Below, in pieces: positions 23,456-33,016 of a DNA stretch of 52,514 bases; the stretch's first letter is position 1; every line of letters starts with the position of its first letter. Below the pieces are notes generated by a model. The model worked only from the letters and a program-made list of their open reading frames with translations, was not told the origin of the DNA and searched no databases. The stretch spans positions 1 to 52,514 of the forward strand of contig JAHLWR010000024.1 of NCBI GenBank assembly GCA_019057815.1. Reading direction: 5' to 3'. The position numbers and the translations under genes are program-made. This DNA comes from Candidatus Heimdallarchaeota archaeon. Its GTDB lineage: Archaea > Asgardarchaeota > Heimdallarchaeia > Heimdallarchaeales > Heimdallarchaeaceae.

Positions 23456-23662
23456 ATGAACAAAATAAACATCGATGAAGTAGAATATATCACCGAAACC
23501 GCACTAACAATAAGGGAAAGCAGACGACGAACAACTGTTCCAAAAGAAATAGTAGAAGCATTGCACTTGAAAAACGGAGATAAAATCAGATGGTTATTAT
23601 TTGATGATGATCGAGTGATGATATCAAAAGTGAAGAAAAGAAGAAGAAGAAGAAACAAATAA
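23456..23662 (+). CDS. AbrB/MazE/SpoVT-family DNA-binding protein
   Basis: RTTVPKEIVEALHLKNGDKIRW. Confidence 0.85.
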   Translation: MNKINIDEVEYITETALTIRESRRRTTVPKEIVEALHLKNGDKIRWLLFDDDRVMISKVKKRRRRRNK

Positions 23663-23729
23663 TTTGATAGATTGAGAGAATTTATTGCACAAAACTATTT
23701 AATATAGAAAACAATTACTAAATAAGGAT

Positions 23730-24170
23730 TTGAGAGTTTTGGATAAGAAGGAGATAAATAAGGACTTCATATTCGATCGGATCGTAGAGGTTGAACAAAG
23801 ATTAAGTCAAATTAAACAACTAAAGAATACAAAATTAGAGGATTTTCTTAAGGATGACATTAGAAGAGATGCTTTAAAATATAGATTGCTTTCTTTAATT
23901 GAAGGTTTGGTTTCCTTATGCAACCATATTATCTCAAGGACAGAAGTTTCTCCTCCTTCAACTTATGCTGATTGTTTTAGAAAACTCTCAGGACTCGGAA
24001 TATCATCAGATACCTTAGTTGAAAAAATAGTCAAAATGATACAGTTTAGAAATATCTTAGCTCATCAATACTGGGTAATTGATGACGAAAAAATATACGA
24101 AATAGCACAGATTGATCATTCTTTTGTTAATGAATTCTTAAAAGATATTAAACAGTTATTGGTGAAATAG
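23730..24170 (+). CDS. HEPN (DUF86/HepT) RNase toxin
   Basis: PSTYADCF, FRNILAHQY (RX4HXY) motif. Confidence 0.92.
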   Translation: MRVLDKKEINKDFIFDRIVEVEQRLSQIKQLKNTKLEDFLKDDIRRDALKYRLLSLIEGLVSLCNHIISRTEVSPPSTYADCFRKLSGLGISSDTLVEKIVKMIQFRNILAHQYWVIDDEKIYEIAQIDHSFVNEFLKDIKQLLVK

Positions 24171-24171
24171 A

Positions 24172-24579
24172 ATGCAAATCTTTTATAGCTTAGAAGAAAA
24201 TGAAAAAGAGAAAATAATAACAATTATCAGTAATTTTCTTAACGAAAATAAAAACATAGAATTTGCTTACATCCACGGAAGTTTTGTCAACGCTAATTAT
24301 TTCAGAGATATTGATATTGGGGTATTTATTAGAGAAGATTGCATCCAAGAACTTGAAAAAGAGCTAGAGAACAACCTTTCCATTAAACTTACAGAGATAT
24401 TAAATTACGAATGTGACATTAAAATTATTAATAATTCTCCAATTCAATTTCAATATGCGGTCTTAAAAGGAAAACAGATATCCTGCAAAAATAAGGAATC
24501 TTTAGTTCTTTTTAAGGAAGAAATCTTTCTAAAATATCTAGACTTTAAACCGATAAGGGAACAATTTTTCGATAAATGA
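24172..24579 (+). CDS. Minimal nucleotidyltransferase (MntA) antitoxin
   Basis: FAYIHGSF...FRDIDIGVF (GS...DXD). Confidence 0.92.
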   Translation: MQIFYSLEENEKEKIITIISNFLNENKNIEFAYIHGSFVNANYFRDIDIGVFIREDCIQELEKELENNLSIKLTEILNYECDIKIINNSPIQFQYAVLKGKQISCKNKESLVLFKEEIFLKYLDFKPIREQFFDK

Positions 24580-26304: not shown

Positions 26305-26973
26305 TTGGGCGAACTAATTGGTAGGATTAAATCACTTGAAAATGCTATTGAGGACGCATTACATAAATATGAACTAGTAGAGAGTTATGCAGATGCATTG
26401 GCTGAATATAGACGTATAAAAGAGGAACTACTTGCATTTTCTATTAGTGAATCTGATCCTGACAGCTATAAGGAGCAACAACGTGTTCTTGCTTATGTTT
26501 TAATGCGTGAAGGAAATGCATTACGTGATTTGAATGAAGTGGAAGAGGCTAATGCTGTCCAAGAACTTGAATTAGTCGCAGCAAAAAATTCCGGAGATGA
26601 TATTGCGATAGCACGATCTTTATTCTCTTCAGCAGTACAAGAGCTTACTACTAGAAACGTTGAGAATCGTTTGAAACTTCTTGAGGAGGCTTTGGAGGCA
26701 TTTAATAAAGGTGATTCAGTTGATCATATTATGGGTGCTGGATGGGTATATATTATATATTCAGATTTGATGAATTTGGATTTGATACCTTCTGAATATG
26801 AAGAAATAGTTGAATCATGTAACCACGCGATAAAAATACTCAAACCAATTGAAAATTGACAGGGTTTAGCGAGAGCATACGAAGCTAGAGCTTTTGCACA
26901 TAAAAGTGCTGATGAGTTAGATTTAGCAAAAAAAGATGAAGAGATGGCAAAAGAATACACATCCAAAGATTAA
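26305..26973 (+). pseudogene. TPR-like helical protein with in-frame TGA at 26857-26859
   Basis: Frame continues PIEN*QGLARAYEARAFAHKSADELDLAKKDEEMAKEYTSKD to TAA at 26971-26973. Confidence 0.7.
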
Positions 26974-27339
26974 TTCCAAAAAAAGAGCTGTTCTATAACC
27001 TGGATAAAATTCCTTTTACGTTTTTTTTTTACTTTCGTAAATATTTCCTCTTGATGAGCGATTTTTACTATTAAAAGGTATTACACCAGTTCTAATAGAG
27101 AAATACTACTTACTTTAATGTGCGGAACATGATTTGTACGGTTTGACGAGATGGAAACAATCACATGAAGCAGAGAGTACACCGTACAAAGAAGAGAAAA
27201 GAGGTGTTAGGTGGGGTGATACAGAATCATAGACTTTCAGAATGTTTTAAGAAAGATGAAAAATTATCATAAAGACCCAACAAATACAAGTTTTCACAAA
27301 TCTTATTAAATCTGCAACGAGATAGTACTTGAAAATATA

Positions 27340-27618
27340 TCATTTTCTATACATATTTAAAACTATAATCTTTCTTTTACTTTTAAATAACCGATACATA
27401 ACTCTGTAGTCACCTATTCTTATTCTAAAATAGTTTTCTTTTTCTCTATACTTACGAACATCATACTTGCTTTTGAGAGATTCTCCACGCTTCATATCAA
27501 GTATTATTTGTTTTACAGCTTCTATAATATCAGGAGGAATTTTGTTTCTTTTGTTTTCAAGTTTTTTCGTAAAAGATCTAGTAAATTCGAGTTCATAAGT
27601 GATTTCTACCCTCTCCAG
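27340..27618 (-). CDS. RelE/ParE-family toxin lacking a canonical start codon (absent from ORF track)
   Basis: Manual translation VEITYELEFTRSFTKKLENK...YDVRKYREKENYFRIRIGDYRVMYRL...IIVLNMYRK*; only CTG (27618) or GTA (27609) at the 5' end. Confidence 0.85.
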   Translation of the reverse strand: MERVEITYELEFTRSFTKKLENKRNKIPPDIIEAVKQIILDMKRGESLKSKYDVRKYREKENYFRIRIGDYRVMYRLFKSKRKIIVLNMYRK

Positions 27619-28143
27619 TTAGTTCCATATTTTATCGTTTTTCTTTAGTTCCTCCCAGCTAACCGTTTTTCCTTTCTTACATTGTTTTATTGCTTTTTTT
27701 ATTAATTTCGATTCTTTTTTCGATAATTCTTCATCATCATACGGTATTTCATCAATTTCTTCAAATAATCCTTTTTTTGTACTATCTGGTTCCATAATCA
27801 GTACTTTGTCTTCTGATAGAATTGCAGTGATTTTATCTCCAATCTCTAATTCAAATGCTTGTAATATTTCAAGTGGCATTTTTATATGCGATTCAGGTAG
27901 GATTTGTAATTGAAATTCTTGTATCGTATGAACTACTTCTTGTAGTTTACGTATTCTCTCTAGATAAATTATAAAGGAAGTTGGCTCAGGTTGATAAGTT
28001 AAACCTCTAGTTTTTTTAGTATAAACATATTTGCACATATTTGTATATTCCAGATCCATTATGTCTTTTTCTTTTTTGTCTTTTCTTTGTGACTCTTCAT
28101 CATAATTAACAGTTTGTATTTTACTCAATGTCATCACCTTCAA
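27619..28143 (-). CDS. Antitoxin-like protein: extended N-terminus, AbrB-like domain, RelB/ParD-like tail
   Basis: HIKMPLEILQAFELEIGDKI; DEELSKKESKLIKKAIKQCKKGKTVSWEEL; directly upstream of the RelE-like ORF. Confidence 0.75.
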   Translation of the reverse strand: MKVMTLSKIQTVNYDEESQRKDKKEKDIMDLEYTNMCKYVYTKKTRGLTYQPEPTSFIIYLERIRKLQEVVHTIQEFQLQILPESHIKMPLEILQAFELEIGDKITAILSEDKVLIMEPDSTKKGLFEEIDEIPYDDEELSKKESKLIKKAIKQCKKGKTVSWEELKKNDKIWN

Positions 28144-28738
28144 TTTCTGACAATACTCTATTTAATTTGCTAATTAATTTCTCAATTTCAAATTTACTTA
28201 ATGAAAGAACTATTCTTTCTTTTTCATATTCGCTTTTAAAATAATCTAGATAGAGATTTGCAAATCTTTCATTAATTTCCATTTCTTTTCCTTTTATCTT
28301 TCTAGTTAAAATTTCAAAAGTTGTATTTGAAAGCAGATGTGAGGGTCTATTTAGAAATGATATGATGAAATCCTTTATTTTTTGATCAATACTATTAATT
28401 ATTTTCAACATTTTTTCCTTTTCTTTTTCGTCTTTTATTTTTGGTTCCTCAAAATCACTATTTTCGAATATTTCATAGATTGCAGGAATTAGAGAACCTA
28501 TTATTATACAAACTTCTTCTTTATCTATCTCTTTTATGTTTTCGAAATAGTCAGATTCTTTAATTTTGATACCAAATCCTGTTTCAATTTTTTCTATAAT
28601 CAAATCATCATTCATAATTGCTTTAACAAATATATTTGCAATCTCCTTTACTGATTCGTCATTCACTTTAGATAATACAATTTCAAGTTTTGATAATTCA
28701 GATTCCTTATTTTCTCTTGATTCTTCTGTGTTTGACAT
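28121..28738 (-). CDS. Hypothetical protein, candidate COMMD-like (helical N-domain plus COMM domain)
   Basis: 205 aa; C-terminal strand-strand-strand-helix hydrophobic pattern matches the COMM domain by eye; SD-like aggtg upstream of the ATG. Confidence 0.55.
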   Translation of the reverse strand: MSNTEESRENKESELSKLEIVLSKVNDESVKEIANIFVKAIMNDDLIIEKIETGFGIKIKESDYFENIKEIDKEEVCIIIGSLIPAIYEIFENSDFEEPKIKDEKEKEKMLKIINSIDQKIKDFIISFLNRPSHLLSNTTFEILTRKIKGKEMEINERFANLYLDYFKSEYEKERIVLSLSKFEIEKLISKLNRVLSEIEGDDIE

Positions 28739-29086
28739 TACTACACCTAATAAAACCCATTTATTTAAACTTATTCACAAACAATGATAAGTCTTCAGAT
28801 AGTTACCAATAATATATTACATAAAAATAACTTAAAAAATATTATCTAAAATATCTCAACTCTTGAGTTCGTGATTATGAAAAGCTTGAAACAAGAATTA
28901 CATTCTTATTGAGAAAAAGATTTAGAGGAAATAGTGTTGTAAAGGAGTTATTGATTATAGAACGCGCTTTTTTATTCTAACTAAGTGGAAAGAAAAAAAG
29001 AAAGAATTGGGTTTTTTAAAGTGAATTCATTTAGTAGGACATTAAAAATCGTAGTTAAAGGAAATTTAAAAAAGAGAAAAGAAACA

Positions 29087-31689: not shown

Positions 31690-33016
31690 TAATGGCAGAA
31701 GTCCCCTTATTATCAGTGGGGGAGGGATGCTAGATGGTTTACTTTAGCTTTTTATAGTGAAAAAAGAACTAAGAGGATAGACTAATGCTAACATACAAAG
31801 TGCAACTGTACCCTAATAAACAACAACAGGCAAAACTTGTCGAACAGTTGGATATTTGTAGAAAACTCTATAATAAACTACTAGAAGAGTGCAAGAAAGC
31901 GCGAGAGAAGGGAGAGAAACTCACACAAAGCAAAACTCAATCGTTTATAGTGAGACTAAAAAACAACTCTATGCCTGAACTAAAAGAAGTTTATTCTAAA
32001 GTTTTACAGATGGTCAATCATACTTTGTGGGTAAATATCAAGAGTCTATCAAAGTTAAAAAAGAGTGGGCGTAAAATAGGTCATTTAAGGTTCAAAGGAA
32101 AGGGATGCTACAAAACTATTAACTACAACCAGAGCGGGTTCAAGATAGACGAGTATAAAAACAAGATTACTTTCTCTAAAATAGGAATTATCAATTGTAG
32201 AGGACTAAATAATAGATTAAGGAAAAACAAAATTAAGGGGATAATTCTCAAACGCTCTCAAACGGGTAGATGGTTCGCTAATATACAAGTAGAAAACACT
32301 CTAACAGATCTTCCTAAAACCAATAAAAGAGTGGGAATAGATGTGGGTGTTTCTTCGTTTATCGTCGATTCTGATGGTAGAAGAGTAGAGAACCCTAAGA
32401 ATATAGACAAACAATTAAAGAAAATTAAAATCGCTCATAGAATCCTCTCTCGTAAAAAGAAGGATTCAAAGAACTGGTTAAAAGCCAAGTTACAATTAGC
32501 TAAACTTTTAGCGCAAGTTACTAACCAACGTAAAGATTTCTTGCATAAAGTTTCCAGATTTTATGTTAGAAGTTACGACTTTATCTGTGTAGAAGACTTG
32601 AATATTACAGCACTATCACAGAAAGGTAACAAAAATAACAAGCGGTCACGCACTCTTCACCGTCACATTTTAGATGCTTCGTGGGGACAGTTCTTCAGCT
32701 ATTTATCTTATAAAGCTGTAAACGCTGATAAAAAAGTAGTTAAAGTTCATCCTGAAGGTACTACTCAAGAATGTTCTAGATGTGGGAGAATAGTTAAGAA
32801 AAACCTTTCAACCAGAACACACCTTTGTCCTTATTGTGACTTAGAGTTAGACCGCGATTATAACGCTTCAATCAATATTTTGAAGAGGGGTACGGGATGT
32901 ACCTCTTTACTTGTGGAGAACAGACCTCTGGTCACTATTAGCGCTTCTGCTATTGTTAGTGGTCAAGTCTTTTCTATGAATCAAGAAATTCCTACCTTAA
33001 GGTAGGAGTAGTTCAT
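31690..33016 (+). mobile_element. IS200/IS605-family (IS1341-type, tnpB-only) element; left boundary approximate
   Basis: Left hairpin tcccc/gggga at 31702-31723; right palindrome tcctaccttaaggtagga at 32990-33007 followed by gtagttcat. Confidence 0.8.
31785..33005 (+). CDS. tnpB: RNA-guided endonuclease TnpB
   Basis: YKVQLYPN HTH, GIDVG, VEDL, TTQECSRCG...CPYC Zn finger, DRDYNASINI; catalytic D-E-D intact. Confidence 0.96.
   Translation: MLTYKVQLYPNKQQQAKLVEQLDICRKLYNKLLEECKKAREKGEKLTQSKTQSFIVRLKNNSMPELKEVYSKVLQMVNHTLWVNIKSLSKLKKSGRKIGHLRFKGKGCYKTINYNQSGFKIDEYKNKITFSKIGIINCRGLNNRLRKNKIKGIILKRSQTGRWFANIQVENTLTDLPKTNKRVGIDVGVSSFIVDSDGRRVENPKNIDKQLKKIKIAHRILSRKKKDSKNWLKAKLQLAKLLAQVTNQRKDFLHKVSRFYVRSYDFICVEDLNITALSQKGNKNNKRSRTLHRHILDASWGQFFSYLSYKAVNADKKVVKVHPEGTTQECSRCGRIVKKNLSTRTHLCPYCDLELDRDYNASINILKRGTGCTSLLVENRPLVTISASAIVSGQVFSMNQEIPTLR

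Follow-up and report, generated by a model that had tools for sequence, protein, structure and literature searches.

A COMMD-like gene stands first in a mobile three-gene cassette with putative antitoxin and toxin genes in a Heimdallarchaeial genome

The window analysed here, the whole 52,514-nucleotide stretch of contig JAHLWR010000024.1 (GCA_019057815.1), comes from a sediment metagenome and belongs to a genome of 3.74 Mb in 48 contigs that is 95 % complete. An earlier note on the same DNA had suspected an Asgard origin, and the genome does belong to the Heimdallarchaeia and shares its family with Ca. Heimdallarchaeum endolithica PR6 (G007, CP084167.1). Three closely spaced genes on the minus strand form the subject of this study, with the following features.

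27324..28995, minus strand: whole 1.67-kb module (upstream region and three genes), delimited by DNA identity to locus L001
28121..28738, minus strand: COMMD-like gene P0001, gene 1 of the cassette, a 205-aa ORF with an ATG start
28343..28705, minus strand: HN-like helical N-terminal domain of P0001, residues 12-132, from the half folded alone and alignment
28130..28342, minus strand: COMM-like domain of P0001, residues 133-203, from DSSP on the model, Foldseek and VIA-align
27619..28143, minus strand: antitoxin-like gene (gene 2), 171-174 aa, from alignment and MazE/AbrB profile matches
27340..27603, minus strand: RelE/ParE-family toxin gene, 87 aa, from Pfam ParE_toxin and profile comparison with RelE3

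The earlier note had called a 205-aa protein at 28121-28738 and aligned it without gaps to the COMM domain. The reading frame is real, lies on the minus strand and begins with ATG; its letters are identical in the source contigs, which are not independent of the window. The C-terminal segment quoted in that note corresponds to residues 135-199, and comparison of that segment with the human COMMD1 string as given in the note yields 11 identities (17 %) over 65 columns without gaps. The two substitutions it described were also found, with Phe141 at the Trp site and Arg158 at the Pro site. Trp is absent from all eight family members examined, its site holding Phe, Tyr or His across the family, and the eukaryotic Trp and Pro are missing throughout. 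The profile check that the note had proposed, a search with P0001 against Pfam COMM_domain (PF07258), gave no match, the best PF07258 match among family members having an E value of 0.055, and searches of PDB sequences with P0001 alone or with the family profile matched no COMMD chain. Nothing useful was returned for P0001 by sequence searches of Pfam, NCBIfam, PADLOC and PDB. A match to an AP sigma subunit (E 0.04) was rejected, as the family profile no longer recovers it and the modelled fold is a different one. The family itself is small, with 195-212 aa in all complete members and 23-80 % identity; P0001 is acidic (pI 4.8, net charge -14), as are six of eight members at a charge of -8 or lower. 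By sequence alone, the likeness of P0001 to COMMD proteins is at chance level; the predicted structure raises it well above that.

The AlphaFold2 model of P0001, built from eight alignment rows, has a pLDDT of 82.5. Residues 3-130 are predicted to be mainly helical with one beta-hairpin at 46-59, the turn of which (Gly54-Phe55) is invariant in the family, and DSSP on the model places strands at 136-149, 154-167 and 173-181 ahead of a helix at 182-200. The length and helical N-terminal half thus fit the COMMD architecture as had been claimed, with a helical domain followed by three strands and a long helix; the layout is HN then COMM in about 200 aa with no further domain. In the comparison of the model with PDB by Foldseek, all 13 matches at E<=0.001 were COMMD or COMMD-like, as were the first 19 rows, the top match being the bacterial COMMD-like structure 9Q6A (E 6e-6); identity to 8p0w_A, a 190-residue chain of the human COMMD ring, was 18 %. 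An aligner independent of Foldseek gave Z scores of 7.7-8.5 to six COMMD entries, with Pur-alpha as the next fold at 5.1, and a repeat run was similar. The COMM part superposes on COMMD structures with an rmsd of 2.0-3.2 A over about 70 residues (VIA-align Z 8.3-8.5); for the COMMD9 COMM domain 6bp6 and the short ring chain 8p0w_F, the TM score by target is 0.75-0.81 and the rmsd 2.0-2.4 A.

The whole chain superposed badly (TM 0.3-0.37, rmsd about 8 A), an effect that probably reflects hinge movement between the domains of the monomer model, and residues 12-132 were therefore folded alone (pLDDT 87). Foldseek found no match for this isolated N half. With the second aligner, 9Q6A and three human COMMD chains were its top four among 48,161 chains, with Z 5.0-6.1 (9Q6A 6.1) and an rmsd of 3.8-4.2 A over 100-102 residues; the next unrelated row had Z 4.3 over 61 residues. 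The N and COMM halves each rank COMMD chains first and in the correct order, which constitutes independent support for a COMMD fold, although Z scores of 8-8.5 are only moderate. On this modelled structure P0001 is very probably a prokaryotic COMMD-like protein.

Prokaryotic COMMD-like proteins have been described by Liu et al. 2026 (PMC13392464), including MBK5214510 with PDB 9Q6A/9Q6C; their set holds 111 archaeal proteins, and the solved bacterial homologues form rings. The COMMD passages of PMC12962969 report homologues in Lokiarchaeales, Helarchaeales and Heimdallarchaeia. The earlier note had presented its protein as bearing on the origin of the Commander complex; as Asgard COMMD-like proteins were already published (PMC13392464, and the COMMD passages of PMC12962969), that headline is known in kind, and the later phylogeny does not place the Asgard copies beside eukaryotic COMMDs (PMC13392464), and a reading as a fresh clue to that origin is not supported. 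P0001 is a real new member of the published family. It shares with the proteins of PMC13392464 its size, its HN and COMM layout and an identity to COMMDs below 20 %, and differs in the hairpin of its N half, in the presence of two copies in the source genome, where most prokaryotes have one, and in its place in a toxin-antitoxin operon, the word toxin being absent from that main text. The published Myxococcota genes lie near type VI secretion-like genes, unlike P0001. The Asgard COMMD-like iESP of PMC12962969 are alike in fold call and phylum, Heimdallarchaeia included, but the COMMD passages of that paper report no gene context. The toxin-antitoxin context is new in that it appears neither in those passages nor in the main text of PMC13392464, and a literature search combining COMM domain and antitoxin found nothing relevant. 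The function of prokaryotic COMMD-like proteins is given as unknown or left open in PMC13392464 and in the COMMD passages of PMC12962969. In eukaryotes, COMMD1-10 of the Commander/CCC complex (PDB 8P0W, 8F2R, 8ESD, 6BP6) make up a heterodecamer to which CCDC22/CCDC93 and Retriever bind. P0001 superposes on these proteins in the COMM part and aligns in its N half over about 100 residues, but it lacks the Trp and Pro motif and falls under the Pfam cut-off; there are ten genes there and one or two here, and the partner genes here are an antitoxin and a toxin.

Gene 2 overlaps gene 1 by 23 nt (14 nt if counted from the ATG at 28134) and consists of a variable N-terminal extension, an AbrB/MazE-like middle part and, at the C terminus, a tail of about 35 aa. 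The extension, of about 58-77 residues before the AbrB part, occurs in every cassette gene 2, whereas the tail is restricted to RelE-linked copies. Asgard AbrB antitoxins that stand alone (about 80 aa; L024, L026) have no such N-terminal extension. The gene 2 profile matched only MazE in PDB (E 0.011), and Pfam MazE reached E 0.0019-0.087 in three members, under the cut-off; gene 2 is likely AbrB/MazE-like, as this is the consistent best match even though it lies under curated cut-offs. A reciprocal search with gene 2 recovered cassette members only, two of them new and each with a COMMD-like gene upstream, and in the searches made gene 2 was never found without gene 1.

The third gene starts 15 nt past the antitoxin stop, behind a GGAGAGG ribosome-binding-like motif. 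Its product matches Pfam ParE_toxin at 27.8 bits (cut-off 23), and the toxin profile matches archaeal RelE3 (3bpq) with E 1.7e-9. The start is probably a non-canonical ATC: the triplet stands at the matching place in all four RelE loci behind a GGAG(A/T)GG motif, and in two of the four an in-frame TAA immediately precedes it, which argues that an AUC start is real. Gene callers truncate or miss the toxin because of this conserved ATC, and an AUC start would be expected to lower toxin output. The PIN proteins that take the place of RelE elsewhere have weaker Pfam matches (best E 8e-5) and keep the invariant acidic residues. By analogy to characterized homologues, RelE would be a ribosome-dependent mRNA nuclease and PIN an RNase.

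The arrangement was compared across 12 loci, which come from five lineages of one small Heimdallarchaeia subfamily with 23-38 % identity between lineages and therefore are not 12 independent events. The spacing from gene 1 to gene 2 is -26 to +5 nt in every one of the 12, and the reading frames overlap in 10; in the 11 loci that are long enough, a toxin gene is next at -11 to +15 nt from gene 2, encoding RelE in four and an enlarged PIN protein in seven. An antitoxin-like gene followed by a toxin gene in a tight putative operon is thus evident as a gene arrangement. Gene 1 and gene 2 yield trees with five lineages in common and a single clade linked to RelE (support 96/95 and 87/91), and genes 1 and 2 were therefore inherited together while the toxin was swapped. 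Confinement of the C-terminal tail to the RelE clade indicates one or more exchanges of the toxin along with its binding tail. P0001 is, in our judgement, probably a functional part of the module.

Type II AbrB-PIN (VapBC) and AbrB-RelE pairs (PMC2701414) likewise place an AbrB-like gene immediately ahead of a PIN or RelE toxin, exchange toxins between lineages and show a patchy, mobile distribution; AbrB-RelE was an under-represented pairing in that survey. The cassette differs in its fixed third upstream gene, its long antitoxin N-terminal extension and the probable ATC start of RelE. Toxin-antitoxin genes are sparse in the source genome, with 3 AbrB, 9 PIN and 3 RelE matches.

The module is rare, mobile and fast-evolving. 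Over exactly 27324-28995 it shares 82.5 % DNA identity with L001, where the flanks are unrelated, and its three genes have 26.6 % GC compared to 31.5 % for the window. It occupies a slot of varying content between a TPR-like gene and sat-cysC: the same-genus genome G001, with flanks 93-94 % identical, carries an Lcl_C gene in this slot, as does L041 among other relatives, and L042 has other genes. The L001 unit has a plasmid-type gene (PF27228) as its neighbour and is flanked on both sides by 139-nt direct repeats of a small RHH gene, and in L041 an element related to that of L001 sits 4 kb from sat-cysC. At L001:1721-4254 and L041:13072-15731 lies an element, plasmid-like or integrative, that carries a PF27228 (MTBMA_p00010) gene of 700-790 aa and has an RHH gene at its end; it may be the vehicle that fills the slot beside sat-cysC. 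An RHH remnant was also seen upstream of the TPR gene in G001 (L038:2571-2726).

Selection on gene 1 was estimated by pairwise dN/dS, the values of which are rough in such AT-rich DNA. Of four informative comparisons between lineages, three indicate purifying selection on gene 1 (0.32-0.41), and one pair gave 1.2-1.4 (34 nonsynonymous to 6 synonymous codons); sat-cysC, for comparison, gave 0.05-0.08. The P0001 family profile matched 2 of 400 Asgard genomes, many of which are incomplete and in which more divergent COMMD-like proteins would escape the profile, and the subfamily occurs in 1 of 30 other genomes of the source family; the profile did not reach Lokiarchaeial COMMD-like members. Two COMMD-like genes were detected in the source genome, with 35 % identity to each other, and the paralogue, on contig C1, is the sole COMM-profile match there (13.5 bits; cut-off 22.4). 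Across the 400 Asgard genomes, PF07258 gave four weak matches, three of them in or against unrelated genes; the fourth is a 129-residue frame at L033:1462-1848 (G205:C303, another Asgard family) that scored 18.1 bits and is too short for HN and COMM. A weak family-profile match in G152 was set aside as it resembles a HEAT-type protein. No relatives were found among plasmids and phages, in viral contigs or by JGI pattern scans. Pfam searches of the source genome for CCDC22, CCDC93 and Vps35, run without a positive control, returned nothing.

Taken together, these data lead us to lean towards a COMMD-like ring as the third component of a toxin-antitoxin module, rather than a proto-Commander, and they point to a stress or defence role rather than membrane trafficking. 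The three genes would form a mobile type II module of COMMD-like protein, AbrB-type antitoxin and RNase toxin, with activities read from homologues, in which gene 1 comes first and, judged by the gene arrangement, is translationally coupled. By likeness to the solved bacterial homologues, P0001 would most likely form intertwined dimers that close into a ring of 8 or 10 subunits. This putative ring may bind the antitoxin, plausibly via the 60-77 extra N-terminal residues, and would keep it stable or assembled so that the RelE or PIN toxin is blocked; were the ring to be occupied or disturbed by stress or an invader, the toxin would be released and translation would stop. The antitoxin may also regulate its own operon through AbrB, as homologues do. 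Control of the toxin by ring and antitoxin is put forward tentatively, at somewhat less than even likelihood, as gene order alone gives no mechanism; a predicted complex of two COMMD-like chains and two antitoxin N-terminal parts (score 0.02, mark 0.32) was counted neither way on binding.

Such a scheme would work as in toxin-antitoxin-chaperone (TAC) systems, with another fold. TAC systems, for example HigB-HigA-SecB-like of M. tuberculosis, comprise three genes, an antitoxin with an extra segment and an oligomeric third protein. The cassette is alike in having three genes, an antitoxin with an extra segment and possibly control by an oligomeric third protein. It differs in that the third component adopts a COMMD fold and is encoded first, with the order antitoxin then toxin, and in that the common extra antitoxin segment is N-terminal, with no C-terminal chaperone-addiction tail, the C-terminal tail instead tracking toxin type. 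The best structural matches of P0001 are COMMD chains.

The first alternative, which we regard as unlikely, is that the COMMD-like protein is a nucleic-acid-binding transcriptional co-regulator of the operon. In some three-gene toxin-antitoxin systems (PaaR2, omega) the first gene does act as a regulator, and gene 1 stands first here; its COMM half resembles Pur-alpha and PC4 (Z 4.3-5.5), and its N half is weakly like homeodomain or Myb bundles (Z up to 4.3). However, P0001 is acidic, gene 2 already has a likely DNA-binding AbrB domain and COMMD-like proteins appear to be without nucleic-acid-binding surfaces (PMC13392464). Equally unlikely is that the gene is cargo with a job of its own, the toxin-antitoxin pair merely preventing loss of the unit. 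Addiction modules are known to stabilise neighbouring genes, the unit is mobile and published COMMD-like genes are found in other contexts, but cargo would not readily account for frames that overlap in 10 of 12 loci, for gene 1 and gene 2 trees that match across 23-38 % identity, or for a gene 2 extension that ordinary AbrB antitoxins lack in a gene that these searches never found without gene 1.

We consider it very unlikely that the COMMD likeness is convergent, a Pur-alpha/PC4-like or CT584-like strand-strand-strand-helix unit joined to an unrelated helical domain. The absence of a significant sequence match and of Trp and Pro would suit convergence, as would an N half with a hairpin and without a Foldseek match; against it, both halves independently rank COMMD chains first in the correct order, COMMD scores of Z 8.0-8.5 exceed those of Pur-alpha (5.1-5.5) and Cpn0803 (4.1), and the paralogue is the only COMM-profile match in the genome. 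Most improbable is a vertically inherited eukaryotic signature protein, a proto-Commander for Asgard membrane recycling: true COMMD architecture does occur in a Heimdallarchaeia genome, and the COMMD passages of PMC12962969 list Asgard COMMD among proteins suggesting compartmentalisation, but the subfamily was found in 2 of the 400 Asgard genomes searched and, within the family, in 1 of 30 other genomes, it has a variable slot, high dN/dS and a toxin gene in 11 of 11 long-enough loci, and PMC13392464 finds no prokaryotic CCDC22, CCDC93, VPS26C or VPS35L and does not place Asgard copies as sister to eukaryotic COMMDs.

Read as a third toxin-antitoxin component, the COMMD-like protein becomes open to experiment, as a three-gene operon with a known toxin type makes its function testable. 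The Heimdallarchaeia subfamily, at least, behaves as mobile conflict-system cargo, which bears on the reading of an Asgard 'eukaryotic signature protein': because this subfamily is mobile, finding it in a genome argues only weakly for trafficking machinery in the archaeal ancestor. Horizontal movement could also explain unstable COMMD phylogenies. A bolder proposal, which we hold to be rather unlikely, is that the ancestral job of the COMMD ring was holding and sensing for a toxin-antitoxin pair via the extended antitoxin segment; the cassette would then belong to an undescribed three-part toxin-antitoxin or defence class in Asgard archaea and bacteria, and the eukaryotic ring, with CCDC22/CCDC93 linkers wrapped round it, would be a co-opted conflict-system scaffold.

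Several further observations were made on the module ends and the neighbourhood. A 20-nt stretch at the right end of the module (27321-27340) has one further exact copy in the genome, where an unrelated gene ends (contig C4:15218-15237), and 5.9 kb away from it is a match to an A-rich 18-mer of the left end, possibly by chance; a shared recombination-site model was rejected, as the C4 matches enclose ordinary genes and no cassette. Rfam gave no match in the window, and a sigma-70 promoter scan, which is unsuited to archaea, was at chance level. The TPR-like gene beside the module (26305-26859, plus strand) stops at a TGA, at which position the orthologue from the same genus reads Trp and continues to 222 aa; the TGA is also present in the source contigs and is probably a recent nonsense change. 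At 23456-24579 (plus strand), an AbrB gene is followed by a HepT toxin and MntA antitoxin (type VII), a region of which the 3' part has an 81 % identical second copy on contig C24. A TnpB-like ORF, named by translation, lies at 31785-33005 (plus strand), and ten or more related copies of the DNA around its 5' end occur in the genome. At L016 (4790-7505 and 16921-20591), the cassette copy of H. endolithica PR6 has a tandemly duplicated gene block nearby and, at a distance of about 5 kb from the copy, an integrase and ParB-like region, these names coming from translations. Finally, a further trio of tightly coupled genes (234 aa, unknown; 173 aa, unknown; PIN) was seen 1.1 kb downstream of the cassette at L012:4497-6254, and its first gene has no match to the COMMD-like profile.
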